This document shows, piece after piece, positions 21,801 through 51,610 of a stretch of DNA of 64,000 bases (positions are counted from its first letter, which is position 1; every line of letters starts with the position of its first letter). Source of the stretch: Schmidtea polychroa (lineage: Eukaryota); NCBI GenBank assembly GCA_044892525.1, contig CM097886.1, positions 120,032,001 through 120,096,000 of the forward strand. The letters are read 5' to 3'. The notes beneath the pieces were generated by a model that was given only the letters and a program-made list of their open reading frames with translations, was not told the DNA's origin and searched no databases. The translations under genes were made by a program, and so were the position numbers.

Positions 21801-22969
21801 ACGTGGACACCGCCCGATGTATCTACAAATATTTATTACTGGCATCTAGTTCGATTTATTGGATTGATCTATTCCAATCTATTCACACTCATTCACTCAT
21901 CAAAATTGCAAACAAAATTACACACGACATTAAGTTATTTGCGCGTTAGTAAATTGTAAACCTCTAAAAATCACAAAGGCTTCATCTAAGTGTGACGTGC
22001 AAATTATATATCTAAAGCCCGTTCAATTTGAATATGGTGTATTAGCTAAATGCTATTGTTCTTTTATTCTTTTATTCTTTTATTTACGATTTATTTATTT
22101 TTTTACGAATATGTGAATTCAGCTGATTCAGTCAGTAATTTAACTCTTGAAAAAGGAAGTATGAGAACTAAATGCAAATAAATTAAATCATCAATTAAAA
22201 CAAATGAAAGGTGAAGATGGAAATAAAGATAAATAACTTTAGTGATAGTAATCATAGGCGTAACCCAAGGACTAAGGCGTTTAAATACGTTGAATCAGTT
22301 TAATACTTCGAAACGTTAACATAATGTAAAACTTCTAGAAACTAGAAACCACAAAAGATCTCAGTTTTTGTCCGGAATAACAGCTGCCTACAAATAGATT
22401 GTTCCGATTCTTTACAAGTTTGATCTCCTTTCCAATTTACGACCACAAACAAAGAAATGTGGATGTTTAGCCATTGAAACAATTGTTTGAAATAAATATA
22501 TAATGAGGGTTAATGAACGCACTTGAACCCATCTCATTAGTTGATATCGGGTATGAGACTATGGTATTAGCACTACCAGATTACATCATTCAACCCGAGG
22601 CCAGCATTTCTTTCTCTCGGAAGATTTACTGAAAATCTATCAACAGACTTCATGTATTGTCCTGAATGGTTGGCATCATTTCTTTCAGTGACACCAATGA
22701 AACATATGCTTATAATGATATCTTATTTTCGCTCAATATATTTCATTCCTGCAAGGAATTCTTTAATCAACCAAATGGGAAACGCTTAACACCTCCCCTT
22801 TATAAATTGTCATTTGAAAATGCTAATTAAAACAAAATATTTAATAATTATACAATATTGAAATTATAAAAGTATCGTTCTGATTGGTTGAGTATTTCTT
22901 CAAATCAACTCTTAATTACTTCGAGCTTCTTTGTTAGTTCTTGGGTAATCTCGAATCTTGAAAACGAAA

Positions 22970-23944
22970 ATGTATTTCATCAGTTCGTTGAACTTGACCC
23001 TTCTTGGGTTTGGATTTGTCCTCGATTTGGTCATGTTGAAACTCTATCGGACAACAAAACTCCATCTAACGGATTGTATAAGTTTGATTGGATTTTTGAT
23101 AGTGTTGTCGGATCTATTTCAGTGTGGTTCTTTGATGATTCTCAATCAGATCAATTCGATCTTGAGTTGTAAGTTATTGGTTTATATCCAGTATTCCTGT
23201 AGTTCCGGTTGCATTGTCTCGGTGATAACGTTGATGGGGATGCTCACTTATGACACCAATTCTGGCGGGTCAGCCGCCAGTAGTGTATTTCTTACTCCAG
23301 CATTAATATGGTTTGGGATTCTGGCAGGGAATGTTTGGTTAGCAATAGCGTACAAGTGCATGAATTATATCCCATTAATTCTGATATCTGAGAAAGTCTA
23401 TGATGAGTATTTCATAATAGCTCACACGTGTATCATGATTGTTTTACCGCACTTGGTTTGGACATATCTTTTGTATAAGCAATGGAAACAGTTTATATTC
23501 CTCAACATTTCGAGAGTCAAACAATTGATAATACTTTATTTTATTTACACGATTTTGGTCATTCCAAACTTTCTGTGGGTGATTTTGTTTCATATTTTTC
23601 ACAATCAAATCTACATTTCAGTAGTAAAACAAATCGTCAATTCTCTCTATTATTTCCAATTGTTTATCAAGCCGGCTGTGTTCATTCTAATGAACAAAAG
23701 AATCCGACAACGGTTCAGGAAGTTTCGGCAATCCGTGGAGCACATTGATGTCCCGAATATTCTTATAGATCAGTCATCAATTGACTCGATTTCTTCAATC
23801 AAACCCAGAGAAAGATTGGAGAGTAACATATCAATGGATTCAAGAAATTATTTCCTTACTCTACCTTCGTGGAGATATGAGATGAATAAAATAGATAACA
23901 GTAATGTTAATAGTAATGACAATTATAGTAACAGGATGAAATGA
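22970..23944 (+). CDS. Intronless orphan rhodopsin-like (class A-like) 7TM receptor
   Basis: 324 aa from ATG 22970 with seven hydrophobic helices. Motifs: TM2 LSDLF, Cys at the top of TM3 (SCKLL), TM4 Trp, TM5 VLP..Y, TM6 Pro (LVIP), TM7 KPAVF plus a helix-8-like NKRIRQRF, and a Ser-rich tail. Confidence 0.8.
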   Translation: MYFISSLNLTLLGFGFVLDLVMLKLYRTTKLHLTDCISLIGFLIVLSDLFQCGSLMILNQINSILSCKLLVYIQYSCSSGCIVSVITLMGMLTYDTNSGGSAASSVFLTPALIWFGILAGNVWLAIAYKCMNYIPLILISEKVYDEYFIIAHTCIMIVLPHLVWTYLLYKQWKQFIFLNISRVKQLIILYFIYTILVIPNFLWVILFHIFHNQIYISVVKQIVNSLYYFQLFIKPAVFILMNKRIRQRFRKFRQSVEHIDVPNILIDQSSIDSISSIKPRERLESNISMDSRNYFLTLPSWRYEMNKIDNSNVNSNDNYSNRMK

Positions 23945-28300: not shown

Positions 28301-29935
28301 ATCATTTTAAGCTTTTTCTCCTTTGTTTTGAAAAAAGGTTTCTTCATTATTACAACACGCTGTCAGCATATTTAAATTTAAAATATGTTTATTGATTATT
28401 GAACTCTTGGCGCTTCTTAAGAACTTAACGATGAAATTGCACTAATTACTGATAAGACTATTGAAAATAATGCACTCAAGAATCCACCTTTTTGTCAATA
28501 TATTATCTTTCTCATTAGATGTCGATTTTTAGTGTTGACTAAAAATAAAAGTGATCTTTTATGTCTTTGCAATACTAATATATTAGTTTTAGTAATATTT
28601 ACGTTACCGTGAACAACAGTAACTTCAAGTAAATCATCAATAACAAATGAAAATCTTGTAAAAAGGACATTCGTTTACATTAAAATATGGTCAACTGCGT
28701 TCAAATTTTATTATTACTAACATTATTTAAGTGGTTGTATTGTTTATAATTTAATCCATTTCTCAGTTTGTTTCTTCACAATAGGCTTCTTACTACGTCT
28801 AGTTCCTAAGGCATAAACTGTATCAGTACAACAATTGTGAGCGCTTGTAACAGAATAATCAGATATGCGGTTTGATTGCAAAGTTACTGGGCTCAATCAA
28901 GTTTATTAATTGATAAAAATTCAAGGACAATAATCCCAAAATTAGTTTGCTTCAAATATTTTATTTAAAACAAGAATTCATCCGAAAACTAAAACTGCTT
29001 CATATTAAAAGTCCCAAAAATAAGTGAAACTGACATTTCAAATCATATGTAGGGAAAACTTTTTTTTTGTTACTTGTTTAAATATTTGGTAAAAATTTCA
29101 TTAAAAAATCTGTTCATTTTCTGTACTGATTTTCAAAGCAAACTAATTGATGTGGAATAATTCAATATGAGAAGAAATCATTGAAGTGAAAAAGATTTTA
29201 AGAAAATTTCAGTATCAGTAATTAATTAGGAAAATTTTTACACTTTGAATTTGTAATGGGATAAATCTTTTGTATTCCTTTGAACATCCTTGATTTTCAA
29301 ATTCTTGAATAAGTATGATGGAACTTTGATAATTTACCCTTTTGAGCCGCATATCTTTATTGTCATTTACCCCCCAACATCTCTTGTTGCAAAGGGAGCT
29401 TTTAGTATCAGAATAATTTAATTTGATATAGATTAAGCGCTAAACATAAATTAAAATCATAAAATTTTACCTATAAAATTTGATTCTGAAACACGAGGTA
29501 CAAAAATTCATGGTAAAAAATTGTAAATGATTTGAGAGGGAAGACTCCATTGAAGAACCCCTCCCCGTGTCGTTAAATGTCTAGTTGGAGTTATTATTTT
29601 CAAATTGACGCATATTAATGAAAAATACTTGATTAAGAAAATAACAGCAAAAGTTTTACTTGAAAATTAGGACAAAATTTTGACTTTCAAAAAGATTTTA
29701 CCCTTCACATTTGCATTATTAGACAATAGAAATCCCTATTTAAACAAAAACCATTTTGAAAATAAAGGGTAAGTAATTTAAAAAAAGTGTTGGATGATCT
29801 GATCTAAAATTATTACATCTTTTTCATAATTATTCATTTTTATTTCTGATCAATTGATAATTTGTACAATTAATTTATTAATATAAATATACAACTCTTT
29901 AAATACATATGCCAATAGGAATCATTAATATTTTC

Positions 29936-31173
29936 GGTAAATAGTAGATTTACTATGTTAATGGTAATTTACTATGTTAAAAAATAAAGTAATAAATTAA
30001 ATTAATAAATCAATATAAATTAATTATAAATTTACAAAAATTAGCACATCCATGCCAAAACAAACACAATTCTTTATAATTCCGAAGCAGTCAATTCTTT
30101 CAGACGACGAAGTACGTGCCATAAATATTAACGAAAACTATCTCGACAATGTGTTTCTTGATCATACCAATACAAATGAATTTTTAGCCTGCTTTGGTCT
30201 GATACAGAATTTTAAACTGTGTAAACGATGCGAAAACCGGCATTTACGGTATGTTAAAAATATGAATTATGTGGATGGTTATCACTGGTTATCAGACATG
30301 TCGATATCAGGAATCTATTCGTGCAAACTCTTTCATTGTGAAAAGTAAGATGAACACAAAAAACTTTTTATCGTTATATGAAAGGGGAAGAATTACAAGA
30401 CATTAGTTATGAATTGAATATTGAAAGACATACCGTTTCGAGTTAGGTTTCGTTGCTTCGTGAGGCAATGATATATTATTTATCAGCAAATTTTAGTATT
30501 CTGGGCGGAGTTGGTAATAATGGACAATCAAAAATTGTTGAGGTTGACGAGACTTTATTCTTCCGGTGAAAATATAATCGAGGACAGATGTTGAATCAGC
30601 GATGGTATATCGGGGGTATTGAACGTGGGACAAGAAGCATTTTTATCCTGCCAGTACCGAACCGTAAAGCCGAAACCATTGCGGCCATATTTATTGGAAA
30701 TATACACCCTGGATCAATTGTCATTACAGATCAGTGGCGTTCTTATGGAAGAGTATGTCGAGAATTAAATGTATTCATGCACCAAACCGTTAACCATTCT
30801 GTCAACTTCGTTGATCCATGCGACCCAACAATCCATACTCAAAACATTGAGGGACTATGGTCACGTTCAAAATACTTTATTCGAAAAAAAGAGGCGTTTC
30901 AAGTGAGATTCAATCGGAATATTTAGTACAATTTATTTGGGAATACAACATTGCAAAAAATAAGAGATTTAATGATTTGTTGATCTTATTAAACCATTCT
31001 TGATTCACGGATAAAAAATTATGGATTTTATTTAATTTTTGTATAAGCAAATATTTTTTTAATTGCAGTGTTTTTAATTTTATAATTAAGTTATATTGAT
31101 TTATTAATTTAATTTATTACTTTATTTTTTAACATAGTAAATTACCATTAACATAGTGAAACTACCATCTACC
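29936..31173 (+). mobile_element. Merlin (IS1595/ISXO2-like) DNA transposon with broken transposase
   Basis: ~95-bp TIRs starting GGTA, and an exact 8-bp TSD ATATTTTC (29928-29935 and 31174-31181). Transposase fragments include IVEVDET, GGIERGT, PNRKAETI, IVITDQWRSY, HQTVNHSVNFVDP and HTQNIEGLWS. Frameshifts and a TGA are present. Confidence 0.92.
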
Positions 31174-31445
31174 ATATTTTCTTATCAATTCCTTAAATCC
31201 TTTACTGTAAACTCCCCATAAACACTAAATTCCTGTATTGTTGTGCAAATCCATTAAGAAATTAATTCGAATCTGAAATATAAACTCCAAATCTTTTAAA
31301 CCAATTTATTAGCATAAAATATTTTCCTGAAAACCCATTAATAAAACAAAGATTCACAAAATTTCAAAAGAAAATCAATTGAAGGCAAAACATATAATAC
31401 CCTGCAACACAGAAGTAAAAAAATTATTTAGGCACATAATAAAAG

Positions 31446-31860
31446 TGTTAGGTTTGCAAGTTGGTTAGAGTACTAACACACTCACTCGATCTGACTCCAA
31501 GGATATATGTAAGATAAATCAGAACAACAACTCGACTTTTATATAAAACTATTTATTGATATGAAAGATAAATACAAAATATGGATTTGATTAGAAAGTT
31601 TAAAATAACAATAAAACGTGTTGCCCAAAAAAGTTGTTGCAAATAAGCAGAAAATAGATTTAGGTTAAACAAACCTTCCTAAGATATTTCTAAGGCGACG
31701 AATACAGGATTCTAATTAATAGACAACACCGCTCAACAATATAAGAGGGTTGCCCGAAATTTACTGCGATCGATTAGTAATCAGAAATTGGTAGTAAAGT
31801 TATCCTAGATTCCTTACCCTATTCCCTACATCAGATCAGAACCATGATTAAATTTAATAA
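31446..31860 (-). mobile_element. 3' part of a second, related LTR (copies at 47044-47394 and 49880-~50294)
   Basis: Plus-strand TGTTAGG terminus and CTGACTCC motif as in 33177. Minus-strand TAGAAATATCTTAGGAAGGTTTGTTTAACC aligns with TAGAAATATTCTTCAGGGCGGTTTGATTAACC in the large element's LTR. AATAAA on the minus strand at ~31552-31557. The inner boundary is approximate. Confidence 0.75.
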
Positions 31861-32437
31861 AGATCACAACAAAGATCACAACAAGATCACAATCAGTTTT
31901 GAATAATAACGGTTTGTCCATTTCAACATCATACGATAATGCTATCATTGAACAACCTAATGGTCGCATCTCAGCCGATTGGGTATAGAGCTGATTAATA
32001 TCCGCAATACAACGACATATTATATCACAAGGCATTTCATATCCAATTTTAGATTTAAATCGAGCTGCTTCCACTTGTGCACGACATACTTGAGATCGAC
32101 AATCAGGGATCATAGCAGTCATAACACCTCCAGTACTTTCAGTAATATTAAACGAGTCTTGATCGGTAACATCATACACAACAATAATTCCATGAGCTCC
32201 TCTGTAATAAGACGAGGTTATAGTTCTAAATCTTTCTTGACCTGCTGTATCCCATATTTGCAATTTTATAGTTTTACCATCTAATTCAATAGTTCTGATT
32301 TTAAAGTCAACCCAATTGTGCTTATATGAGTGTTCAGTATGAGTATCATCTGCAAATCTGAGTAATAAACAAGATTTTCCAACACCAGAATCTCCAATTA
32401 ATAGAAACTTGAATAAATAGTCATACTCTATATCCAT
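31826..32437 (-). CDS. RAB1/PSMA6: Chimeric ORF: Rab1 N-terminal half fused in frame to an internal segment of proteasome subunit alpha type-6, ending in LTR sequence
   Basis: aa 1-97 are Rab1 ([76 protein letters not shown]). aa ~96-182 are PSMA6 ([44 protein letters not shown]). No introns in the CDS. Confidence 0.9.
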
Positions 32438-33176
32438 TTAATTATTGTCAACGTTCCGGTTTCGATAAACAGATAAACAATTATAATCGTACAAAAAATA
32501 ACAAATCGCAAATTCCAAACTTCAAAATTTCACAATTCCAGAACAAAATTCCAATTTCTTGCCTCAGACAAACAACTCTAAATTTCCACAAAATTAATAT
32601 AATAATCACAATTTAAAAATAAAAACCTACTTCTTGCGTCTGTGTGCGCACACCAACAATATTCGATCAAATCATACCGCGCACACAGACGCGAAACAAA
32701 AGGAAACGTCAAACAAACTGCCAGTCAGAGGTGAGTGACATTCCCCCTCTGACTGGTCGAAACAGATGCTTTTCAAGGTATTAATATGAGTCTTATTAGA
32801 ACTGTCACAACTGGGGTATCAAAATTATATGATGACCAGTTTCTATTTTTCGCACATGGCTGTTGTAGGGTACTTGCATTTACATAGGCAAAGTAACGAT
32901 CAAAACGCTAATTACCTTTACTACAACTTTATTATCGTTCATCCTCAAATTTATAAATAACTATTCACTTAACTACTATCAAATTTGTTTGATGTATTAT
33001 AACTATAACTATTATAACTATATAGGCAATAGCTTCCTGTTTGTAATCAGCACAATAAATAATTATTTTTACGTTTGACTAGTTTTCGTTTAATTTTTGT
33101 TCTATTTCGTTTCCAATAATATTAATGTAAATTATCGTCCTACTACTATTTGAAATATGAATTTTTATACTAAATG

Positions 33177-34269
33177 TGTTAGGTTCGATGGGTAGGTAGT
33201 CGAACTAACACAAAAAATGTTCTATCTGACTCCAATAAATAATTTAGGCGTATAGGTAATAAATAAGAAATATGATTTACAATATTTATTAATGATAAAA
33301 ATTACACGATTGTTTATTTGTACAAATTATTCACGCTGCTCTCTGAAGAAAAGAAAACGGTTAATCAAACCGCCCTGAAGAATATTTCTACGAATCAAGG
33401 CTGGCCCTAAATGCGCCAACAGCCCGATATAAGTGAAAGGAAAAAGATAGGGAAACTCACCAAATTTTACGCGATAGAGTCAACCCAGAAATTGGTTAAC
33501 TCTTTAAATTATATTTGACACGAAACAGCTACAAAAAATATGTGCTGACGTTGCAATCCCCTTTTATATTAATTTAAATAAATGAAAATATTTATATGTA
33601 TATATATTTCAAATCAAAAATACTAACTAATTGATTATTCCAACAAGGGTAAGATAAACCACAGATTGGTTGTCGAACTGGCTACTAATATTTCTTCCTT
33701 TTACTTTAATTAATACTCCAATAGGTATTGGAGTTACGATATTATATAGATGATGCGAAAAATCCTGATAAAAATATCCTTTGGTTCCGAAGAATTTCGT
33801 GATAAATATAATTCCAGTAATTAATTTCTTGATCGATATTCCTATGGAAATTTCTTGATCCAATAGACAAAATGAAATTTCCCAAAATTTTAGGTTAAAT
33901 TCTAAATGTCAAGAATGCCGAATTAAAATGATCTGATCGTATCTATTTATAACTATGGGGATTCTCTTCTGATTTTTCTTGTCTCTAATTTCTTATCCTC
34001 CTGTAATCTAATTTTTAACTAGTATTTATATAAATTTTATTTCCATAATTCTATTAATAGTAATTGTTTAATTACTATTTTTATTATATTTTTTAAATAA
34101 TTTCTATAGTTCTATTTTTAGTAATTATTTATTACTAATTATATTTTAGTTTTAATTTTAGTATTTAATTTCTATTTTCGGTAATTTTTTATTACTATTT
34201 TTGTTATACTTCTAATTAATTATTATTTAATTTCGAATCTTCAATTCCGGTTCCTACTGAACCCCAACA
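33177..34269 (-). mobile_element. 3' LTR of the large Gypsy-like element (1093 bp)
   Basis: TGTT...AACA termini, AATG on the outer flank, and an adjacent PPT. Near-identical to 51611-52703. Confidence 0.9.
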
Positions 34270-34281
34270 AGTCTTCCCCCT
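34270..34281 (-). promoter_or_regulatory. Polypurine tract
   Basis: Minus strand reads AGGGGGAAGACT immediately before the LTR's TG. Confidence 0.8.
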
Positions 34282-34571
34282 AACAAGATTTTCGTCCCGA
34301 AAATTAAAGCGGTAAAGATAAGACAATTGCAGCCAATACATAAAATTAAAAAAAATATAAAAATAAAATAAAACAACTGAATAAAATGTATATACATAAA
34401 GTAATCAAAGTCAAACTCAGAGATGGTTAAACAAAATTAAAAATCAGATTTATCAAATGTTGTTCATAATGTCTATCAATTTGAATATCTGGATTGGATT
34501 GAGTTGTCGAAGGTGTTGGGATTGAGGACGTATAGCAAATTGCTAGGTCCATTGAACACATAGCCGAATTG

Positions 34572-36209
34572 CTAGTATTTTCTCCTTTTCATGACCTTGG
34601 CACTTTCGTTACGGATCCTTTGTTCTACAATGTCAGGTCTGTAACTGACCACCAAAGTCTCCCGTGTACTTACCTCTTTGTACACAATTGAGGAGATAAT
34701 GTACGAGCCCTCATTAGCCTCCAATACTCCGTAGTCGGGGAAATTGGATACGGCTACTTCATGGATTGGGCCTCCGTCGTATTCCGTGATACGCGGTTTC
34801 CATTTGCTGTCGGGTCTCTGCCACCAACTAGGATCTTCCCTGTCGAGGTCTTCCCGTATTTTGATTGAATTGCCCCTTCCGACGAACTCGCCTTCCTTTA
34901 CGATAATAGGTTCTCCTGAAATCGTGGGTTCACTCTTTGTTGCCAATATCTTGGTCAACGCAGGATCTGGTGGCTGATAGTGGGTTTCTAGGAGATCGTC
35001 ATCCTCATCTTGGATGGATATCCTAGGCATCTTCTTTTTCGTGCTCTTAGGAATCTCCGTTTTCCTCTTTGTAGAGGTAGGAACATTTTTCTCCTTGTCC
35101 TCTTTCTGGGGGGGTTTCTCCGTTGGTTTCTTTTTAAACTTCAAGTCTTGTAGCTTGAGTAATGGTGCCACAGCTTGGGGTAATGTTCCCCCTTCAGCTC
35201 CTTGTTTGGGTTCACCCAACGGGGCCAATGCTTTCAGGATCTTGGTGACCCGTTCAACTAACTTTTCTGCTGGCTGGGGTTTTTCTACTTCCATTTTAGC
35301 CGAATTCACCACTCTACCGTCATTGGTAAGGGTGACTTGGCGGCAGTTATCGTCTGCACTCTCACAAGTGGCATAGTCGTCTTCATCAGCAATTGAAATG
35401 GCTGGCGGCGACAAGGAATCTTCTTCCACTATTTTCAACAACTTCGTCCTGGGGATATCTTCTTTCACATAGCTCTCCATAGCTAGTGGTTTTTGCCTGC
35501 TTGAGGTACCGGGTTCCATCTGCTTGATTTGTGAAGACACCACCTCTTTCCGGGTGTCCGGTGAAATGTCGTCGACCCAGATGTCTCGTAGGTTATCGTA
35601 AATCTCCTTGATGGTAGTTACATCATTCTCCGTTTGAAGATCCGAGAAATGATGTGCTTCTTTACCGGTGACTGCCTTTGCCAAATATGCCAAACGATAA
35701 TACCCGTTGCATTTCTTTAGGTCCCTACTTTCGAGACATTTAGCTGCGCCTAGCTCACGGATTCCGAGAGCGCGCTGCATTGGGAATCTAATAACTTCTA
35801 GTAGGTCCTTTACTAGCAATCCCACGATGATTTTCCCATCGCAGATTTTCCTGATTCGTTCGGCACAGTCTTCTCCGTCGAACTGTCCTATTATTTCTTT
35901 CTCGGTCATACCATGCGCATGCGATTGGTAATGTTTGACCTGTGCTCTGGGGGTGACTCTCGTGTTGAGTATCAGATCGCCATTGAAATGTGAGATTGAA
36001 ATGGCCACGATTGCCGGTTTCAGGAATTGTCGTAGTGTAGCGTAGTGAGCTGCTACGAAAATGGTGAGGTTATCCTCTTGTCTAGGGTCCAGACGCTGTC
36101 TGACGAAAGACTTAAATGTTTTGATGTCGTTATCGTTGACATTATATGTCCAGTTTGGGTCATTAACCCATCTTGTTTGTGCTTCTCTGTGAGGTTCCAG
36201 GATTTCCAT
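34572..36209 (-). CDS. Accessory ORF (545 aa): DEDDh/REX4-like exonuclease-fold domain with degenerate active site, long charged linker, C-terminal domain ending KRRKY
   Basis: AISISHFNGDLILNTRVTP..QVKHYQSHAHGMT, GKIIVGLLVKDL, RLAYLAKAVTGKE and ENDVTTIKEIY parallel REX4/ISG20 motifs (ARVSIVN.G..LYD.YVKP..VTDYRT..SGI; GRILVGH..NDL; SL..LA...LG; EDA.A.M.LY). The ExoI position reads FVAAHY rather than DxE. Confidence 0.65.
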   Translation of the reverse strand: MEILEPHREAQTRWVNDPNWTYNVNDNDIKTFKSFVRQRLDPRQEDNLTIFVAAHYATLRQFLKPAIVAISISHFNGDLILNTRVTPRAQVKHYQSHAHGMTEKEIIGQFDGEDCAERIRKICDGKIIVGLLVKDLLEVIRFPMQRALGIRELGAAKCLESRDLKKCNGYYRLAYLAKAVTGKEAHHFSDLQTENDVTTIKEIYDNLRDIWVDDISPDTRKEVVSSQIKQMEPGTSSRQKPLAMESYVKEDIPRTKLLKIVEEDSLSPPAISIADEDDYATCESADDNCRQVTLTNDGRVVNSAKMEVEKPQPAEKLVERVTKILKALAPLGEPKQGAEGGTLPQAVAPLLKLQDLKFKKKPTEKPPQKEDKEKNVPTSTKRKTEIPKSTKKKMPRISIQDEDDDLLETHYQPPDPALTKILATKSEPTISGEPIIVKEGEFVGRGNSIKIREDLDREDPSWWQRPDSKWKPRITEYDGGPIHEVAVSNFPDYGVLEANEGSYIISSIVYKEVSTRETLVVSYRPDIVEQRIRNESAKVMKRRKY

Positions 36210-36278
36210 TGCTATGATGGTATCTATACCTTCACATAACAGTGATATGTTCTTTTCCCTTCCGTCCCGGTTTTCTAT

Positions 36279-36734
36279 TTAGAGGGTAGTGTGCTTTTGT
36301 AGCAAAATAGGGTTCGTGGCGCCAGGAACATAAACCGTAATTGGTTTGTTAATGGCGTGTATCCACAGGTGGTTGGTCAGACTATGTCTACCAAACTCAG
36401 GCATGACCTCGGTAAGCCTAATACTACCGTTATGCTTACCCGGGATTCTGGAGATAATCATTTGACGCTTTGGAGCCTCGTCAAATTTGAAATTATTGGG
36501 TATACCTGAACAATGACCGTAAAACCAGTGCCTTTGTCCTTTTCTACCTAGCTCCATAACCTGCTTCTCCAGGTTCTTGTAAATGAGTTTTTCTTTTAGT
36601 AAGGTTGTAGCACGTATAATGCTATGCCTTCCTTGGTATTGGGATATTGGATGGCTCTGCATTCCTGAAATAAAAATCATTAACCATAATATCAGATATA
36701 CTGATATGCCATAATAGGCTAAAAAGATATGCAT
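36279..36734 (-). CDS. Accessory ORF (151 aa), probably secreted
   Basis: ATG start, hydrophobic N-terminus (IFLAYYGISVYLILWLMIFISG), intact frame, same strand as the element. Confidence 0.6.
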   Translation of the reverse strand: MHIFLAYYGISVYLILWLMIFISGMQSHPISQYQGRHSIIRATTLLKEKLIYKNLEKQVMELGRKGQRHWFYGHCSGIPNNFKFDEAPKRQMIISRIPGKHNGSIRLTEVMPEFGRHSLTNHLWIHAINKPITVYVPGATNPILLQKHTTL

Positions 36735-36860
36735 AAGTCTTATAATAAAAGATCTACATATGCTGAATTTTAATGCTACCTGGAGCTCTACGTAAATATA
36801 GATTTTAAGATATATATAAATATTTATATATGATTTTTCCCTCGGGGGAGTCTGTAATTG

Positions 36861-37490
36861 TCATAATTGCGACATCAGTACTCCATCGTAAGCTCTTATG
36901 GCTTGTCTAAAATATAGCTTGGTCCAAATACCCATAGCTATCAGTGTAGTTACCAGCGATAGTACGGCCGATACCGTAATCCATACCCCTACGGGTATTT
37001 TCAGGATATATCCTGCATTAAAGTTTGTGATGGCATTACAATCACAACAGTTTGTCATGTTTGGGGGCGTTTGACAAGATATTTGTTTAATGGGTGACAA
37101 CTGTTTAAGATGTTGCCACATTGCGGGATGTATCACCATGTTCTCCCTGACTACTTTTGGTGGTTTTTCCGTTACAACTGGCTGTTTCAGAGGTAATATC
37201 TCCTCAAATACCTCGAACCACCTATCGTCTTCCCGTTTCCTCGGACTATAGTATATAACTAGAACCGAATATTCTACTGACTGATTTAGATACGTTTCTT
37301 GGGAGGGAGAGTTCTGGTCTAACCATAATGTTCTTCTCGTGGTTGATCCGTTTAGAATGCTGATTTTCACTTTTTCCTCCCTGTTAATTTGCTGGCAAAT
37401 TTTACTTTCTCCTTCTCGTAGGATATCGATATGCGGTTTGTGAAATCTGCCGTCCGTAGGATCCAATTTGATACGTGATAGGTATACCAA
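36861..37490 (-). CDS. ORF overlapping the pol end in the -1 frame: beta-rich ectodomain plus C-terminal TM
   Basis: TM VGVWITVSAVLSLVTTLIAMGIW near the C-terminus, with N-x-S/T sequons (NGS, NQS, NMT). It has no ATG start of its own at the overlap. Confidence 0.7.
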   Translation of the reverse strand: MVYLSRIKLDPTDGRFHKPHIDILREGESKICQQINREEKVKISILNGSTTRRTLWLDQNSPSQETYLNQSVEYSVLVIYYSPRKREDDRWFEVFEEILPLKQPVVTEKPPKVVRENMVIHPAMWQHLKQLSPIKQISCQTPPNMTNCCDCNAITNFNAGYILKIPVGVWITVSAVLSLVTTLIAMGIWTKLYFRQAIRAYDGVLMSQL

Positions 37491-40400
37491 CCATTCCGAT
37501 ATAACCTTGATGCTGCGACATGCAGTTTATAATCCGTCTCGGCTTTTAAGTCATATAAATCCCACTCTTTTTCTTCTGAATCGGGTTGGCGGATCCGCAA
37601 GTACTTGTTGTAGAAATGTAAATTGAATTTTGTGGCATTATCGCATGTTGTGAGTATGCTAATTCCGTGATACGTTCTTATAAAATGTAAGTGTTCCACT
37701 TGCATAGCCATAGGCTGAAAATATGCCTTTCTATCCCTTTTTGCCATTGCTAAAGTCATCATACAGCTTATTATCAGCAAAAAGGTTACCGATTTTGGAA
37801 CACCCCGTGATCTCAATGGGTATCGGTGTTCTTGTGGTTCTTCGGTAGTGTTTGGTTTCACTTGTTTCTCTGGTGCTTTTAGATTTCCAGAGGTTCCCTT
37901 TGTTGAGATTTCGCACTTTTTACACCGATTAGCATGCACCATTATTGGTTCTGCTTTTCTGTTGGCTACAAGTTGTAATATGAGATTTGTGTCTGTGGTT
38001 CTCAATACCTCGTATGGCCCTTTGAAATTTCGCATGAGTTTTGGTGATAAGCCTTTCTTGTTATAATGACTTTCCAACATCACCTGGTCTCCAACCAATA
38101 TGCCATGATCCTTGGCTTTTCGGTCATGATAATCTTTGGATGCCTCCTGATTATATTTTATACTGAGACCTGCTCTAGCCCATGCTTCCTGCATTCTTTC
38201 CCTCATTTCCATTAGATAATCTTCCTGATCTAAATACTGTGTTGCTTTAGGGAAAAACAACAGATCTACTGGCATTTTACTTTGCCTTAGGTACATTAGG
38301 TAAAATGGCGTTTCACCTGTTCCTTCGTGTACTGCATTCCTGTATGCAAATAAACAGGATGGAATGTGGATGTCCCAATCCGTTTGCCCTGAATTTACAT
38401 ATGATGCTAACATATTAGCTAATGTTCCATTAAATCGCTCTACTAGCCCATCCGTCTGTGGGTGATATGGGGAAGTGTTCAACTTTAGAACTCCGAAATA
38501 ATCATTTATTCCTTTGAGCAAATTACTCATGAAATCAGCTCCTCGATCTGTTAATAGCTTCGTAGGTACTCCATACCTAAAGACAATTTGTTCAACGAAA
38601 ATTCTAGCTATTGTATCAGCTTTGTGATTAGGCATCGGGTAGGCTTCTGGCCACTTAGTCAAGTAATCGCAGAACACTAATATGTACTTGTTTCCGCTAT
38701 TAGATTCTTTGAATGGCCCCAACACGTCCATTGCCGTCATTTCCATTGGTGTAGATGGTACTGGCATCGGCTTCATCGGTACGTGTGGTTTCTTTCCGGT
38801 ATTTCTTCTGGTGATACAGATCTTACATGTCTGACACCAGGTTTTAACATCTTGTTTCATACCGGGCCAAAAATATTTTTGTTTTAACCTCGACAATGTT
38901 TTTCTAGATGACAGGTGGCCTCCTAAGGCTCCATCGTGATACTGCAACATGAGTGCTTCACGGTATTTCTTAGGAACCATTATAACGTTATCTCGTATAT
39001 CTGAATATTTAACTAATCCCTCTTCCAGCACAAATTTATCTTTATTCTTTTCCCAGTATTTCGTGAATTCTGTGGGCACGTATTTCGCTTCTAAGGCTTG
39101 TCGGATGGCATTGATTTCTTCATCAGCTTTTTGTGCCTCCATTAAATCAGCTAGCCGGTTGGCTTCTCGAGTCAGTGTGAAGATAGTCCCTTCGAGACGT
39201 CCTTCCTTCACATCTTCTGCTTCCTCCTCCTGGTCCATTCTCGATAAAGCATCTGCATTACCATTATGATCTCCCTTTCTATAATGGATTTCTATGTCAT
39301 ATGGCTGTAAAATTAATGCCCATCTGACCAGTTTTGATGTATCCATTGTGTGTTTCGTCAGCCACTGTAATTGTCTATGATCGGTATACACTATGATCTT
39401 TCGACCCCATAGATAGGTCCTAAACTGGGTTATAGCATATACAATTGCTAAAGCCTCTAGTTCTATCACTGCGTAGTTTCTCTCGTGTGGTTTTAACCCT
39501 CTGCTAGCGTATGCAATTGCATACTCGTCTCCTAGGTCATCTCTCTGACCTAACACAGCACCTATGCCCCGAGTGCTGGCATCTGTCATAACCAAAAATT
39601 GTCTCTCAAAATCTGGGAATCGCAATATAGGTGGCTTGATGAGTCTTTCCTTGAGCCTATCAAATGCTTCTTGCTGTTCTGTTCCCCACACAAATTTGAC
39701 ATTTTTGCCTTCTAACTGCGTGAGTGGGAAAGCTATAACCGAAAAGTTTCTAATGAATTTTCTGTAGTATCCAACTAGACCTAAAAACCCTTTGATATGT
39801 TTAACGGTTTTAGGCTCCGGAAAATTCTTAACCTTTTCAACATTAGCTGGATCGGGTTTAACCCCGTCTCGTGATATGATATGGCCAACATATACCACTT
39901 CTGGTTCAGCCCATTTACATTTGGTTGGTTTAACTTTCATGTTGGCATTGATCAACCTCTTGAACACATCTTCCAAATGTTCCAAGTGTTTTTCCAAATT
40001 TGGCGAGAATACTATGACGTCGTCAATGTATACCATCGCATGATGTACATCCATGAGCATCAAATTCATTGCTCTTTGAAATGTGGCTGGAGCTCCGGTG
40101 AGTCCAAATGGCATTACGTTATATTCGTAATGGCCCATACTCGTAGAAAATGCTGTTATTGGTATAGTCTCATCTTTTAGCTTAATTTGATAAAATCTCT
40201 TTCGGGCGTCCATTACTGAGAAGAACCTAGTGTTTCTCATGCGTCCATAGATATAATCTAACAATGGCAATGGATGGCTATCTTTGCATGTTGCTTCGTT
40301 AACCATGCGATAGTCGTTACATAATCGTACTGATCCATCCTTCTTGGCCACCACTATCATTGGTGATTGATATGGTGATTTACTATGTCTGATTATGCCA

Positions 40401-43400
40401 TGTTTTAACATCAATTTCACCTGTTTATCAACTGATTCCTCCAGACTGAAAGGAATACGGTATGGTCTCAACTTTATAGGTTTTGTATTGGTGAGAACAA
40501 TCTCATGTTCTAACAGGTTTGTTTTTCCCAGATCGTATTCATGTTTCGCGAATACCTGGTCATATTTCCTCAACAGCATATTTACTTGAATGTTTTCCTT
40601 TCTGGTTAGCACTTTGCTATTTGCTGTAGGAGCATCATAGTACTCAATGTCTGGATCTCTTTCTTCTGCCTTTACGGTGAGTATCGACCCTTCTCTCGTG
40701 GCTTGTGGTTCGTTTTGTTTCCAGATTCTGCCCACTCTGGTATCTGGATATAAGTACAGTGGTTTAATGTCCAAATTGGCTACCTTGATTGGTATTCTGC
40801 CATTGACTATTAAACCTACGCTATGCGTAACTGGTATATTGTATTTCTCCGAAAATCTTTCGTCTGGTTCAAATACAACTTCCCCTTCCCAATTATTGCT
40901 TGTAGCTACAAAGCATACTGTTTCTGCTCTGGGTGGTATGATAGTTGTATGATCTATATAAGCTGTATCATCGTTGTAAATTTTTCTCTTTTTACCTCGT
41001 GCTCGGATTAACAATCCAGATGCACAATCGAATACTACTCCTCGTAGTCTTTTTAGAACGTCCATACCCAATAGACATTCGGCTGGGAGGCTTCTCATCA
41101 CTATGATGTCGTGATGGAGCTCCTGGTCACATAGCTTAATCTGGCAGGATAATGACCCTATTACGTTTAATGATGATCCGTTTGCTCCTGTTAATTTTAC
41201 TCCTGCCGGTTTTAGCGACTGCAGTTCATGATGGTTTAACAATTTAGCTTCTATTATGGTACCATCTGCTCCTGAGTCTATCACCGCATTAACTGTATGT
41301 CGGTTCACTCTTATTTTTATCATTGGCTTTTTATCCAAATTCACTGGGTTATTGACCATCAAGATAGAATCGTGCGAGATACCGATTGTATTGGCTCTCG
41401 TTTGTTCTGCTTCCAGTAATTCAGGATCACTCAGTTGAGGATTATACTCTTTAAATTTAGCTTTAATTGATTCTAACGCTTCCTTTGGATAGTGCACTTT
41501 AGGTAATTCTGGCAATGTTGAACATGTCAGATTATTAAATATGGTATCTTCACCGATTTTCCATTGGTGTCGTCCTGTTCTGAGTGTTGTTTCCTTTGAG
41601 TGTTCCCGCCTCTCGTTTGGTGCGGATGGTAAACTCCTCAAAGTTGGCAATTGTACATATCTTGGACTTTTCTTGAATCTGGGTGACCTTATGTCGAATT
41701 TTTGGTCGGAACTGTTATATTCTCCTTCTGGGGACTGTTTTCTCACATAGATTTCCTTTGATTGGTCATACGGAGGAAGATATTCCTTAAATCTCGATTT
41801 TCTTTGTTGCTGATTCGGTTTTTTGTTGTAGTTCTGTTTTCGTGATTGATTTGATCTTGAAGATGTTTCACGAGAGCCTCCATTACCTCCTTCCTTTGAA
41901 TTGTTATCGTCTTGATAACTAGAATACTCCTCCATTTCTGTTCCAATTACTTCATGTTTGACCAAATGTTTCTGTCTAATTTCTTTAATTTCCTTTCTGT
42001 GATGTTTGAATAATGCAAACTCTGCACACATGGGACATAGTCCTAATAGCAGTTTCCATGACCATCCCCCAATTTTGAATATGCTATAAGTTGACATCAG
42101 TTGTGTAATTATCAGCTTTAAAATTACAAATATTGCGTAAATTCCTGAACATCCCGCGACGAAAATACCAAAATTGGTGAATCGTCCCCATATTTTCATC
42201 ATTACGTTCTTTGCTGCTTCTTTATAGTGTTCCGGTCCAAATAATAGATTGTAATCTGGTCGTATTAAGCTATCATGATAAATTGTTCTTATAATTTCCG
42301 TGATACCTCTATCTCTGATTTGTGGGAATAGCAATGTCCTTCTTGCTTCCTCGATATCGTCGGGAGTATAGATCCCTCCTTTTGCTAATTCGTCTAATGA
42401 CTTGAATTCCATATTATCTTTTAATTTAGTTACCTCCAAGGTCTCTACTTGTCGTGTAGATGGTTTTCTTTCTGGAAGAGATATCCACATGTCATTTATT
42501 TTGTATAATGGTGATATTGCCGGGTTGCATATAGCTGGTTGAGGTTTAGCGTTTTCCTCAAGTAACTTTCTGGTTACTGGCATAACAAATCTCAAATTTC
42601 CTTGGTAAGATACTGGCAGTTCTAGAGTGCATTGATTAAATCTGGCTAATTGTACTTCAACTGGTTTACACTCATAGCTATATATAGCTTCTCCCAAGAT
42701 CCTACCAAACATTCCATCTTCCAATAACATTGGAGTAACCAACTCTGTGTTAACAATAGATATTGCTAATCTATTTCGGACTATTTCACGATTTAGCTTG
42801 CAATCATTTAGTATCACCTCTTGATACATATCTTGCATTTGTCCTTGCAGATCATGGTATAGATAATCTACTTTATTATTTATATAATTCGTGATTTTGA
42901 TATCCTTTACATGTAGGACCTTGGAATTCCGAATATATTCTCTTGACAGAAAGATTCCTTTGTAGTTCGTCTCGTATACTCTTTTCCCACATTTAGTCTT
43001 TTTATCTTTTCGGACGAATCGAATTGCTTCCGTCTTGTCTTCCGATATCAATAATAGAGGTGTGTTTTCCTCTCCAATATCTTCCTTCTCTTGTTTGTTG
43101 ATTTTCTTCAACGTTTTTGCTTTATCCCAAACCTTTTCTGGATTCTGAGAATCCCGATATTTAGTTCCATTTAGTTTTCTAAAAGGAATCTTCTTGAGAA
43201 AAGCCAACTCACAATGATCTCTCATTTGTTCGTAAATTAATGTAGTGGTTCCCGTTTTACAACTACCGAACTTGGCATTGCATTGCGGATGTGCCATCAA
43301 TTTTCCTGTGGCCACATCGAATGTTCCCTCGTATTCTCGTAGCTCTACTGAGTAATCTTCTATGTCTACCACATAGGAAACTAAATTGCTACCGCGAATT

Positions 43401-43513
43401 TTCTTTCTTCCTTCGCAGGTTCCATCTGAGGCAATTGTTCCTCCTCGAGTGATTGTTATTCCCAATGTTTTCCCAATTTCTGCTGAGATTGATACCTCGT
43501 TGTCTATCCTCAC
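37367..43513 (-). CDS. 2048-codon polyprotein frame: chuvirus-like glycoprotein, protease, RT, RNase H, integrase, then a signal-like helix and FN3-like extension
   Basis: PR IDSGAD...LLGMD; RT PYRIP, DYR..N, MPFGL, YIDD; RNaseH TDAS, ELE..AI, TDH, ADALSR; IN H-x6-H...CxxC, MDVLGP, LTDRG, VERFN, GPY. Glycoprotein motifs include GEAIY..CKPVEV, C..ELPV and GGIYT. Confidence 0.95.
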   Translation of the reverse strand: MRIDNEVSISAEIGKTLGITITRGGTIASDGTCEGRKKIRGSNLVSYVVDIEDYSVELREYEGTFDVATGKLMAHPQCNAKFGSCKTGTTTLIYEQMRDHCELAFLKKIPFRKLNGTKYRDSQNPEKVWDKAKTLKKINKQEKEDIGEENTPLLLISEDKTEAIRFVRKDKKTKCGKRVYETNYKGIFLSREYIRNSKVLHVKDIKITNYINNKVDYLYHDLQGQMQDMYQEVILNDCKLNREIVRNRLAISIVNTELVTPMLLEDGMFGRILGEAIYSYECKPVEVQLARFNQCTLELPVSYQGNLRFVMPVTRKLLEENAKPQPAICNPAISPLYKINDMWISLPERKPSTRQVETLEVTKLKDNMEFKSLDELAKGGIYTPDDIEEARRTLLFPQIRDRGITEIIRTIYHDSLIRPDYNLLFGPEHYKEAAKNVMMKIWGRFTNFGIFVAGCSGIYAIFVILKLIITQLMSTYSIFKIGGWSWKLLLGLCPMCAEFALFKHHRKEIKEIRQKHLVKHEVIGTEMEEYSSYQDDNNSKEGGNGGSRETSSRSNQSRKQNYNKKPNQQQRKSRFKEYLPPYDQSKEIYVRKQSPEGEYNSSDQKFDIRSPRFKKSPRYVQLPTLRSLPSAPNERREHSKETTLRTGRHQWKIGEDTIFNNLTCSTLPELPKVHYPKEALESIKAKFKEYNPQLSDPELLEAEQTRANTIGISHDSILMVNNPVNLDKKPMIKIRVNRHTVNAVIDSGADGTIIEAKLLNHHELQSLKPAGVKLTGANGSSLNVIGSLSCQIKLCDQELHHDIIVMRSLPAECLLGMDVLKRLRGVVFDCASGLLIRARGKKRKIYNDDTAYIDHTTIIPPRAETVCFVATSNNWEGEVVFEPDERFSEKYNIPVTHSVGLIVNGRIPIKVANLDIKPLYLYPDTRVGRIWKQNEPQATREGSILTVKAEERDPDIEYYDAPTANSKVLTRKENIQVNMLLRKYDQVFAKHEYDLGKTNLLEHEIVLTNTKPIKLRPYRIPFSLEESVDKQVKLMLKHGIIRHSKSPYQSPMIVVAKKDGSVRLCNDYRMVNEATCKDSHPLPLLDYIYGRMRNTRFFSVMDARKRFYQIKLKDETIPITAFSTSMGHYEYNVMPFGLTGAPATFQRAMNLMLMDVHHAMVYIDDVIVFSPNLEKHLEHLEDVFKRLINANMKVKPTKCKWAEPEVVYVGHIISRDGVKPDPANVEKVKNFPEPKTVKHIKGFLGLVGYYRKFIRNFSVIAFPLTQLEGKNVKFVWGTEQQEAFDRLKERLIKPPILRFPDFERQFLVMTDASTRGIGAVLGQRDDLGDEYAIAYASRGLKPHERNYAVIELEALAIVYAITQFRTYLWGRKIIVYTDHRQLQWLTKHTMDTSKLVRWALILQPYDIEIHYRKGDHNGNADALSRMDQEEEAEDVKEGRLEGTIFTLTREANRLADLMEAQKADEEINAIRQALEAKYVPTEFTKYWEKNKDKFVLEEGLVKYSDIRDNVIMVPKKYREALMLQYHDGALGGHLSSRKTLSRLKQKYFWPGMKQDVKTWCQTCKICITRRNTGKKPHVPMKPMPVPSTPMEMTAMDVLGPFKESNSGNKYILVFCDYLTKWPEAYPMPNHKADTIARIFVEQIVFRYGVPTKLLTDRGADFMSNLLKGINDYFGVLKLNTSPYHPQTDGLVERFNGTLANMLASYVNSGQTDWDIHIPSCLFAYRNAVHEGTGETPFYLMYLRQSKMPVDLLFFPKATQYLDQEDYLMEMRERMQEAWARAGLSIKYNQEASKDYHDRKAKDHGILVGDQVMLESHYNKKGLSPKLMRNFKGPYEVLRTTDTNLILQLVANRKAEPIMVHANRCKKCEISTKGTSGNLKAPEKQVKPNTTEEPQEHRYPLRSRGVPKSVTFLLIISCMMTLAMAKRDRKAYFQPMAMQVEHLHFIRTYHGISILTTCDNATKFNLHFYNKYLRIRQPDSEEKEWDLYDLKAETDYKLHVAASRLYRNGWYTYHVSNWILRTADFTNRISISYEKEKVKFASKLTGRKK

Positions 43514-43533
43514 ACTTCCTTTTCGAAATGCAT

Positions 43534-45720: not shown

Positions 45721-45917
45721 ACTAGGTTCATCATCGGAACTCTCTCTGATTCCGTTTCCTGAAGGTCCTCTCTAACGGAGTCCTTTTTTCTGAGAAATTC
45801 ATCTCTTCCAACTTCTACCATAAAAATGGTGCCTTCTTGGTCGGTTAATCTAGCCAACCTATTCTTTTCCTCCTGGATTTCCATTTCCAGTTGTTGCAGA
45901 TAAGTTAACCCTTGATC

Positions 45918-46234
45918 CTAGTTAACCATAAAAGTTGTCTTAGGCTTGTTCACATTACCCTTATCGGTATTTTTATTGAACTGACCCGTATTTCCACTCT
46001 GATTCTGAGGACATGACCTCATCATATGTCCGAATTTCCCACATCCGTGACATTTTATCTTTCCTGATGAATTTACATCATCTCTTTTAATTGTACTAAA
46101 ATTATTGCTGTTCTGAGGGCTTCTAGTCTTGCAGACTGCAGCCACATGTCCCTTACGTTTACATTTTTCGCATTGCAAATTCTGCACTCTACAATTTTCC
46201 GCACCGTGGTTATTCCGTCCACATTTGGTACATT
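45918..46234 (-). CDS. gag: C-terminal fragment of Gag with three CCHC zinc knuckles
   Basis: CTKCGRNNHGAENC, CEKCKRKGHVAAVC and CHGCGKFGHMMRSC (each Cx2Cx4Hx4C), with TAG at 45918-45920. Sequence beyond 46234 is Merlin-derived. Confidence 0.9.
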
Positions 46235-47394: not shown

Positions 47395-48369
47395 GTATTT
47401 AAAACAAGAATTCATCCGAAAACTAAAACTGCTTCATATTAAAAGTCCCAAAAATAAGTGAAACTGACATTTCAAATCATATGTAGGGAAAACTTTTTTT
47501 TTGTTACTTGTTTAAATATTTGGTAAAAATTTCATTAAAAAATCTGTTCATTTTCTGTACTGATTTTCAAAGCAAACTAATTGATGTGGAATAATTCAAT
47601 ATGAGAAGAAATCATTGAAGTGAAAAAGATTTTAAGAAAATTTCAGTATCAGTAATTAATTAGGAAAATTTTTACACTTTGAATTTGTAATGGGATAAAT
47701 CTTTTGTATTCCTTTGAACATCCTTGATTTTCAAATTCTTGAATAAGTATGATGGAACTTTGATAATTTACCCTTTTGAGCCGCATATCTTTATTGTCAT
47801 TTACCCCCCAACATCTCTTGTTGCAAAGGGAGCTTTTAGTATCAGAATAATTTAATTTGATATAGATTAAGCGCTAAACATAAATTAAAATCATAAAATT
47901 TTACCTATAAAATTTGATTCTGAAACACGAGGTACAAAAATTCATGGTAAAAAATTGTAAATGATTTGAGAGGGAAGACTCCATTGAAGAACCCCTCCCC
48001 GTGTCGTTAAATGTCTAGTTGGAGTTATTATTTTCAAATTGACGCATATTAATGAAAAATACTTGATTAAGAAAATAACAGCAAAAGTTTTACTTGAAAA
48101 TTAGGACAAAATTTTGACTTTCAAAAAGATTTTACCCTTCAAATTTGCATTATTAGACAATAGAAATCCCTATTTAAACAAAAACCATTTTGAAAATAAA
48201 GGGTAAGTAATTTAAAAAAAGTGTTGGATGATCTGATCTAAAATTATTACATCTTTTTCATAATTATTCATTTTTATTTCTGATCAATTGATAATTTGTA
48301 CAATTAATTTATTAATATAAATATACAACTCTTTAAATACATATGCCAATAGGAATCATTAATATTTTC

Positions 48370-50259: not shown

Positions 50260-50871
50260 CTACATCAGATCAGAACCATGATTAAATTTAATAAAGATCA
50301 CAACAAAGATCACAACAAGATCACAATCAGTTTTGAATAATAACGGTTTGTCCATTTCAACATCATACGATAATGCTATCATTGAACAACCTAATGGTCG
50401 CATCTCAGCCGATTGGGTATAGAGCTGATTAATATCCGCAATACAACGACATATTATATCACAAGGCATTTCATATCCAATTTTAGATTTAAATCGAGCT
50501 GCTTCCACTTGTGCACGACATACTTGAGATCGACAATCAGGGATCATAGCAGTCATAACACCTCCAGTACTTTCAGTAATATTAAACGAGTCTTGATCGG
50601 TAACATCATACACAACAATAATTCCATGAGCTCCTCTGTAATAAGACGAGGTTATAGTTCTAAATCTTTCTTGACCTGCTGTATCCCATATTTGCAATTT
50701 TATAGTTTTACCATCTAATTCAATAGTTCTGATTTTAAAGTCAACCCAATTGTGCTTATATGAGTGTTCAGTATGAGTATCATCTGCAAATCTGAGTAAT
50801 AAACAAGATTTTCCAACACCAGAATCTCCAATTAATAGAAACTTGAATAAATAGTCATACTCTATATCCAT
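50260..50871 (-). CDS. RAB1/PSMA6: Second copy of the Rab1::PSMA6 chimeric ORF
   Basis: Translation identical to 31826-32437. Confidence 0.9.
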
Positions 50872-51610
50872 TTAATTATTGTCAACGTTCCGGTTTCGAT
50901 AAACAGATAAACAATTATAATCGTACAAAAAATAACAAATCGCAAATTCCAAACTTCAAAATTTCACAATTCCAGAACAAAATTCCAATTTCTTGCCTCA
51001 GACAAACAACTCTAAATTTCCACAAAATTAATATAATAATCACAATTTAAAAATAAAAACCTACTTCTTGCGTCTGTGTGCGCACACCAACAATATTCGA
51101 TCAAATCATACCGCGCACACAGACGCGAAACAAAAGGAAACGTCAAACAAACTGCCAGTCAGAGGTGAGTGACATTCCCCCTCTGACTGGTCGAAACAGA
51201 TGCTTTTCAAGGTATTAATATGAGTCTTACTAGAACTGTCACAACTGGAGTATCAAAATTATATGATGACCAGTTTCTATTTTTCGCACATGGCTGTTGT
51301 AGGGTACTTGCATTTACATAGGCAAAGTAACGATCAAAACGCTAATTACCTTTACTACAACTTTATTATCGTTCATCCTCAAATTTATAAATAACTATTC
51401 ACTTAACTACTATCAAATTTGTTTGATGTATTATAACTATAACTATTATAACTATATAGGCAATAGCTTCCTGTTTGTAATCAGCACAATAAATAATTAT
51501 TTTTACGTTTGACTAGTTTTCGTTTAATTTTTGTTCTATTTCGTTTCCAATAATATTAATGTAAATTATCGTCCTACTACTGTTTGAAATATGAATTTTT
51601 ATACTAAATG

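Follow-up and report, generated by a model that had tools for sequence, protein, structure and literature searches.

In the current analysis of a window of 64,000 nucleotides from the genome of Schmidtea polychroa (contig CM097886.1, positions 120,032,001 to 120,096,000 of the forward strand), an open reading frame that joins parts of Rab1 and of the proteasome subunit alpha-6 (PSMA6) has been recognised as cargo within a truncated solo LTR that belongs to a BEL/Pao retrotransposon family. The LTRs of this family hold pieces of spliced host mRNAs in frame with a ubiquitin-Gag protein, likely as a translated leader that is likely cut off by host deubiquitinases. We place the probability of this reading at about 0.78; for translation from the LTR and for deubiquitinase cleavage it draws on features of the sequence.

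The open reading frame and its parental genes

The intronless frame of 203 codons reported in the initial annotation is found at 31826-32437 on the reverse strand, and its stop codon spans the junction between the LTR and the flanking repeat. Pfam assigns a Ras domain to residues 10-99 and a Proteasome domain to residues 95-183, and the homologues of the frame in other organisms are Rab1 and proteasome alpha-6. The host parents have been located in genome searches that used as queries the C-terminal parts missing from the chimera, and are referred to as L065 (Rab1) and L063 (PSMA6). Alignment to these parents bears out the proposed joining of residues 1-97 of Rab1 to an internal segment of PSMA6. 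The Rab1 mRNA piece (32148..32496, reverse strand) comprises 59 nt of 5' UTR and codons 1-97, the PSMA6 mRNA piece (31892..32153, reverse strand) comprises codons 69-155, and the exon pieces share 94-99% identity with the parents.

Introns 1-4 of Rab1 (102, 56, 46 and 42 bp) and intron 2 of PSMA6 (43 bp) are cleanly absent from the window copy. Parents without introns had been named as a finding that would speak against a retrocopy; here all five parental introns inside the captured spans are gone exactly, which shows that Rab1 and PSMA6 were captured via RNA, from spliced mRNA. No poly(A) tail is seen at the ends of the copies, which are TG..CA with a 5-bp target site duplication (TSD).

Switch I of Rab1 is scrambled in the window frame by compensating +1/-1 indels, a pair present in no sister copy, and the frame stays open. 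The later GTP-binding motifs of the parent, its C-terminal cysteines and the C-terminal half of Rab1 are also lacking. With switch I scrambled and the C-terminal half gone, a working GTPase is not expected. A decayed PSMA6 copy elsewhere in the genome (L064, G000:C3:79.62 Mb) appears to keep the start of the last intron and is therefore probably a DNA-level duplicate.

Anatomy of the window LTR

The chimera resides in a BEL/Pao solo LTR at 31828..32764 (reverse strand), recognised by the TSDs and the sharp common ends of dispersed copies. The unit thus starts at 32764 and not at 32698 as had been supposed. A genome search with the chimera unit returned 70 matches from the best 40 scored of 2586 candidates, with common limits at 31828 and 32764. 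The sister copies have TG..CA ends, unrelated flanks and TSDs of their own, and an exact 5-bp TSD is present in 14 of the 21 Rab1-bearing copies with a recognised end. The first 21 nt of the LTR occur in 839 exact copies in the genome, against 0 for the reversed control. The 5' end of the window LTR is that of paired LTRs accompanied by a primer site (PBS) and a PPT, and is shared with relatives that bear PSMA6 only. Relative to the sister copies the window LTR (32764-31828) has lost its final 16 bp.

The 5' part of the LTR (32636..32764, reverse strand), conserved in the alignment of copies and containing the abundant 21-mer, has hairpins at 32756-32721 and 32693-32636 and is the probable U3/promoter. 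It is followed by a T-rich leader (32497..32635, reverse strand) that differs among copies and that, in the window copy, has no ATG upstream of the Rab1 ATG. The 3' part (31828..31891, reverse strand), defined by alignment to the long copy L024, consists of a triple TGTGATCTT, an ATTAAA at 31858 and the truncated end. The three copies of TGTGATCTT, which had been correctly noted before, start at 31891, 31880 and 31868 and lie at the second of two deletion junctions. This 3' part had been taken for a Gypsy LTR fragment, but 31891-31828 is present in the dispersed sister copies and is the 3' part of the carrier LTR itself. Within it, 31843-31857 (reverse strand), which reads K-F-N-H-G-S and is comparable to the end of copy L125, resembles an older LTR end to which the start of a primer site is joined; this suggests a past switch at the LTR/PBS border.

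Neither PBS nor PPT is present at the window copy, as expected of a solo LTR, and no PBS comes after any of the 26 Rab1-bearing copies. Since the genome search gave no exact match for a full-length element with the exact LTR end of the window copy, its link to Gag rests on the frame and on the shared 5' end. All nine sister loci of the window type end in the Gag frame, and seven of the nine are free of stops up to the LTR end. The window locus is a truncated solo LTR and most likely not a host gene.

Insertion target and surroundings

The window LTR interrupts an older TG..CA solo LTR, the left part of which lies at 31446..31827 and the right part at 32765..33140 (both forward strand). Relatives carry 31446-31827 and 32765 onward as one unbroken unit; as the repeat resumes at 32765, the repeat from 31446 is the insertion target. 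It is weakly similar to the nearby Gypsy LTR (score 121 against a shuffled maximum of 88), and its relatives L216 and L222 have a 4-bp TSD. That a Gypsy LTR donated the 3' end of the chimera is rejected, the Gypsy-like repeat being the split target. Of the 5-bp target duplication presumably one copy survives, at 32765-32769. About 40 bp of the target have been lost at the junction together with the last 16 bp of the LTR, and this post-insertion deletion is read as the event that made the stop of the frame. The stop had been ascribed to the Gypsy LTR; the neighbouring repeat from 31827 gives just two bases of the stop codon.

A second copy of the chimeric solo LTR, with an identical frame at 50260-50871, is located at 50262..51198 (reverse strand) within a 5309-bp local duplication. 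It is not an independent insertion, since its truncation and target are the same as those of the window copy. The 5.3-kb duplication has also been considered as a giant LTR and rejected, because the Gypsy LTR measures only about 1.09 kb (33177-34269 and 51611-52703) and has a 4-bp TSD outside.

The intervening region 33177-52703 (reverse strand) is occupied by an element of Gypsy type that encodes Pol and, divided between two frames, a fusion glycoprotein domain of Monjiviricetes-like type; several relatives of 94-98% identity have LTRs about 13-14 kb apart. At 46235-51610, copies of the far flank (28962-33176 and 30637-31796), joined at short overlaps, stand in place of the usual primer site and gag start behind the 5' LTR. 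This arrangement resembles the outcome of template switching at the DNA level between both LTRs, or it may be an assembly error. The window further contains an element at 29936-31173 with inverted ends of about 104 bp and a broken transposase of ISXO2/IS1595 type, and a frame of 331 codons at 22949-23944 (forward strand) that encodes several hydrophobic stretches and matches no Pfam family at E 0.01.

The carrier family

The full-length relatives of the carrier are same-strand LTR pairs about 4.4 kb apart and 99.1-99.8% alike. LTR pairs of the family differ by 0-5 substitutions, and six of the eight measured have an exact 5-bp TSD. Between the paired LTRs are found a PBS, a T-rich stretch, two ubiquitin domains, a DUF1759 Gag with zinc knuckles, a protease and a PPT. 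The PBS shows complementarity of 18 nt, CCA included, to the 3' end of tRNA-Met(cat) genes; from its features we take this tRNA to be the initiator. A tandem array of tRNA-Met(cat) with a period of 454 bp is located at G000:C1:79.32-79.39 Mb (L209), and the tRNA-Met(cat) motif has 1226 exact matches genome-wide.

The junction of LTR end and PBS occurs 222 times in the genome. Among 60 loci, each with 7.5 kb downstream, four remain open for over 1800 codons downstream of the PBS. The two that were scanned, L177 and L169, encode ubiquitin, DUF1759, RVT_1, Peptidase_A17, Integrase_H2C2 (below cut-off) and DUF5641 in one frame that starts inside the LTR, and represent autonomous members; the element length is 7.5-8.0 kb. 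The subfamily with the 5' end of the window LTR has Gag and protease only and is a non-autonomous lineage. With Pao domains in the carrier elements, and the Gypsy-like repeat being the split target, the carrier of the chimera is BEL/Pao and not Gypsy. A full-length element headed by a different Rab1::PSMA6 mosaic is also encoded (L119/L193).

The Gag proteins of the non-autonomous (L097-L100) and autonomous (L153, L169, L177) lineages are only about 33% identical, and the PBS, a hairpin and some cargo are nevertheless common to both, which suggests that the two lineages are co-packaged. Ubiquitin precedes Gag in three of the best 150 Gag relatives from outside this genome; in two of these it ends in Gly-Gly, which is lost in P0373. 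The N-terminal part of P0456, another such outside relative, contains G-S-R-A, the in-frame reading of the primer site here, ahead of ubiquitin, Gly-Gly and Gag. A homologue search with ubiquitin plus Gag found Pao domains in none of the best 120 of 392 matches, an uninformative result since polyubiquitins dominate them.

Host mRNA cargo and the Gag frame

Pfam domains identified in different LTRs of the family include DSPc, Cpn60_TCP1, Ras, Proteasome, EAP30, SelR and Adaptin_N, and the cargo genes are PSMA6, Rab1, DUSP, CCT, Vps36/EAP30, MsrB and adaptin; the comparison for intron loss covers Rab1 and PSMA6. The cargo sits within both LTRs, ubiquitin alone being internal, and all identified cargo is in sense orientation. 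Pieces of PSMA6 recur in many subfamilies (151 matches from the best 150 scored of 1549 candidates). LTRs with three genes in the order Rab1::PSMA6::MsrB have been identified in L012, L016, L017 and L026, with SelR recognised in L016, and are in frame apart from private lesions.

The frame was counted at 78 of the 222 PBS loci, all on contig C1 and from the first 100 listed; the copies are related, and the counts therefore overstate independence. The longest open frame upstream of the PBS is the Gag frame in 75 of 78 loci, or in 54 of 57 distinct LTR ends. An upstream open frame of at least 100 codons is present in the Gag frame at 58/78 loci (it is shorter at the other 20), against 1/156 for the other frames and 2.2% for random points. 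An A(A/T)TAAA lies 20-60 nt ahead of the LTR end in 71 of the 78, by which the cargo probably occupies a long R region.

In 53 of 54 long leaders the in-frame ATG is preceded, after the hairpin, by at least one other ATG, a feature that a simple model of scanning would need to account for. Met codons are found between the PBS and ubiquitin and could provide a leader-independent start of Gag. Contigs from three runs whose RNA status is a guess cover 18, 30 and 25 of the 30 bins of L193, a comparison without a silent control stretch, and include joins of PSMA6 to ends of the element type; they are not counted here as evidence of expression. No RNA run is listed for the chimera's own stretch of the window, which is uninformative on its expression. 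Among 15 of the 21 joints in these presumed RNA runs, no canonical splice joint is seen at the donor-like site after the PBS.

Selection on cargo, ubiquitin and Gag

Changes in the cargo have been scored against the parental coding sequence and regarded as shared when present in at least three copies. Shared changes number 107 nonsynonymous, 39 synonymous and no stops (0/146), private changes 228 nonsynonymous, 65 synonymous and 15 stops (15/308), and the neutral share of stops is 6.6-6.8%. The deficit of stops among shared relative to private changes has a Fisher p of 0.004, which becomes 0.06 when variants common to just two copies are added. The shared and private ratios of nonsynonymous to synonymous changes (107:39 and 228:65) do not differ (p=0.34); no purifying selection on the cargo protein is seen in this comparison, and the cargo changes look neutral. 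Shared frameshifts of the cargo are mostly alignment artefacts at mosaic junctions, which inflate the counts of shared indels, or compensating sets.

The ratios for ubiquitin (25:26) and Gag (62:100) differ from that of the cargo (p=0.003 and 8e-10), and both proteins are under purifying selection. Gly-Gly stands immediately ahead of Gag in 58 of the 62 loci in which the junction was found (78 examined), and is kept in both lineages despite the low Gag identity of about 33%. The stop deficit, the neutral ratio of the cargo, the constraint on ubiquitin and Gag and the retained Gly-Gly together indicate that the frame and ubiquitin matter and the cargo protein does not. In the simplest reading ubiquitin is likely a linker cleaved by the host. 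Ubiquitin insertions of pestiviruses are known to serve as a cut site for a host protease. The canonical end of ubiquitin is LRLRGG; the ubiquitin adjacent to Gag ends in LRLCGG or LGLAGG, which may slow cleavage.

History of the Rab1::PSMA6 junction

Rab1 and PSMA6 had been described as meeting at a Phe-Asn that both share. Both parents do read Phe-Asn at this point, but the shared bases are GTTTAA (32148..32153, reverse strand) and not TTTAAT, the Rab1 parent having TTT AAC. A 31-mer across the junction has 12 exact copies in the genome. In a long form, represented by 10 sampled copies, residue 110 of Rab1 is joined in frame to residue 53 of PSMA6, with about one A of overlap in an A run. 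Long and window forms coincide at the Rab1 5' junction and differ by 96 nt, which are missing from the window form and lie between near-repeats around GTTTAA. The Phe-Asn junction is thus most likely a later deletion of 96 nt from the longer in-frame join, and not a template switch at a microhomology as first supposed; its 6-nt overlap would belong to that deletion.

On a Rab1 tree of 12 short forms, 10 long forms and the parent, made without the duplicates L002, L007, L025 and L014, the nine window-type copies form one clade (98/97). A single clade, and with it a single origin, of all short junctions is rejected (p-AU 2.8e-5), a result that recombination could also cause; either the 96-nt loss recurred or recombination shuffled it. 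The triple TGTGATCTT is read as the product of a second in-frame deletion with slippage.

The window copy then likely arose by capture of PSMA6, followed by replacement of the N-terminal part of PSMA6 by the 5' end of Rab1 (the 110/53 join). Two in-frame deletions, of 96 nt at the junction and of 32 codons net on the 3' side, would have come next. The copy would then have inserted into the older LTR and been reduced to a solo LTR, before the small deletion created the stop and the locus was duplicated locally.

Mechanism and alternative explanations

Template switching by the reverse transcriptase of an LTR retrotransposon, as the initial annotation had proposed, is the best-supported route of capture of Rab1 and PSMA6, since the pieces derive from spliced mRNA and are located in such an element; the element is BEL/Pao, however, and the Gypsy-like repeat is its target. 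Transcription would start upstream of the cargo and place it in the long R region. While copying this region, the reverse transcriptase would sometimes jump to a co-packaged host mRNA, run to the 5' end of that mRNA and return to the element, and the newly captured piece would be copied into both LTRs. Continued replication would be open only to products with an open Gag frame, and ubiquitin would be the cut site that frees Gag from its cargo leader. With the same LTR origin, the frame might instead be kept only against nonsense-mediated decay or inhibition by upstream frames, Gag being obtained from an internal ATG or released by the element's own protease and ubiquitin serving solubility, stability or recruitment. 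The ATGs upstream in 53 of 54 leaders, the Met codons after the PBS, the non-canonical residues before Gly-Gly and the loss of Gly-Gly in P0373 are in its favour, but it would still need a translation start in the LTR, and the Gly-Gly kept in 58/62 loci, in two lineages of about 33% Gag identity and in two outside relatives makes it unlikely. It is quite unlikely, too, that the captured pieces are selected for a benefit at the RNA level, such as resemblance to host mRNA in the face of small-RNA silencing, and are not just tolerated passengers, although this could coexist with the leader reading. The recurrence of PSMA6 in many subfamilies (151 matches from the best 150 scored of 1549) and the uniform sense orientation agree with it, but the orientation follows from template switching itself and the cargo is freely replaced, deleted and mutated.

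The initial annotation had viewed the locus as a one-off young retrogene and potential host gene, made by a Gypsy reverse transcriptase that passed from the LTR at 31446 to PSMA6 mRNA and then to Rab1 mRNA. This account would cover the intron loss, the 6-nt overlap and the Gypsy-like nature of the 31446 repeat, and the window copy, which has a stop and an ATG with no other ahead of it, could be expressed. It is very improbable in view of the insertion that splits the Gypsy-like repeat, the sisters in unrelated flanks with their own TSDs, the long-junction forms, the neutral changes of the cargo, and a Rab1 part with scrambled switch I that lacks the later GTP-binding motifs and C-terminal cysteines; the window copy is one of hundreds of LTR copies, with its identical frame at 50260-50871 and 12 exact junction 31-mers. 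Barely credible is an origin by DNA-level capture in a Pack-type DNA transposon or Helitron, or as an L1-type retrocopy. The solo copies do resemble short elements with 5-bp inverted ends and hairpins, but introns are exactly absent, no poly(A) tail is present and the ends recur in LTR pairs that enclose a PBS, a PPT and BEL/Pao domains; a Helentron or TIR reading of the hairpin ends is ruled out by the paired LTRs.

Relation to known systems and implications

LTR-mediated retroposition in animals is described as giving spliced partial mRNAs, short junction overlaps, chimeras of several parents and re-mobilisation, and a BEL element flanks one of the cases, in mosquito (Tan et al. 2016, PMC5131818). 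Spliced partial mRNAs, chimeras of several parents and re-mobilisation recur in the present family; the overlap at its Rab1::PSMA6 join is 6 nt in the window copy, probably through a later deletion, and about one A in the long form. In the cases set out in the available part of that paper, however, host sequence replaces part of the internal frames between the LTRs (PMC5131818); here both LTRs contain the cargo, which persists in solo LTRs, occurs in autonomous members as well and keeps the frame of Gag.

The BEL/Pao group includes Flow, with two planarian families and an average length of 7.5 kb (PMC3118150). DUF1759, RVT_1, Peptidase_A17 and integrase in one frame and LTRs with TG..CA ends are features shared with the family described here, whose likeness to Flow is one of length (7.5-8.0 kb) and not of a Pol tree. 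The word ubiquitin does not occur in the main text of PMC3118150, and the available part of it mentions no host sequence in LTRs, unlike the elements described here. Maize Bs1 similarly carries several host genes in one LTR element, as internal cargo in 1-5 copies (PMC5131818). BARE-2 similarly has foreign sequence inside the LTR, which entered by template switching from Wis-2 and is retrotransposon DNA (PMC13317346). The accessible accounts of Bs1 and BARE describe neither a translated LTR leader nor a ubiquitin linker (PMC5131818, PMC13317346). In cytopathic pestiviruses cellular ubiquitin has been inserted by recombination before NS3 (PMC2850149), so that, as here, a captured ubiquitin stands directly ahead of a polyprotein product. 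The pestiviruses are RNA viruses and these are sporadic recombinants (PMC2850149), whereas in this retrotransposon lineage ubiquitin is fixed and selected. The literature searched describes no LTR-resident host mosaics in the Gag frame and no ubiquitin-Gag BEL elements; supplements and Repbase, including the 2008 planarian BEL entry cited in PMC3118150, were outside its scope and may hold a prior description. The part of PMC11410931 available contains no match for retrocopy, pseudogene or ubiquitin.

Taken further, the LTR of this BEL/Pao lineage could be a self-renewing exon-shuffling cassette, in which the captured ubiquitin would make in-frame host pieces of the R region free to carry, so that promoter-bearing chimeras are built, amplified, scattered and released as free proteins. 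We regard the odds as even for this generalisation, which would extend beyond the present genome (P0332, P0456).

If the proposed reading is true, it constitutes a route of gene capture directly into the LTR, with two copies of the cargo made per cycle and the element's own need for Gag filtering the cargo for open frames. New genes could be drawn from the hundreds of promoter-bearing, in-frame host chimeras, from which small RNAs that target Rab1, proteasome subunits or other essential genes might also derive. In the nested series of junctions a natural record is kept of the mRNAs that entered the particle and of the points of template switching. Copies of the cargo swamp searches for the real genes, as with PSMA6 (1549 candidates, of which the best 150 were scored), and gene annotation, the mapping of RNA-seq reads and the design of RNAi in S. 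polychroa can be led astray by them.
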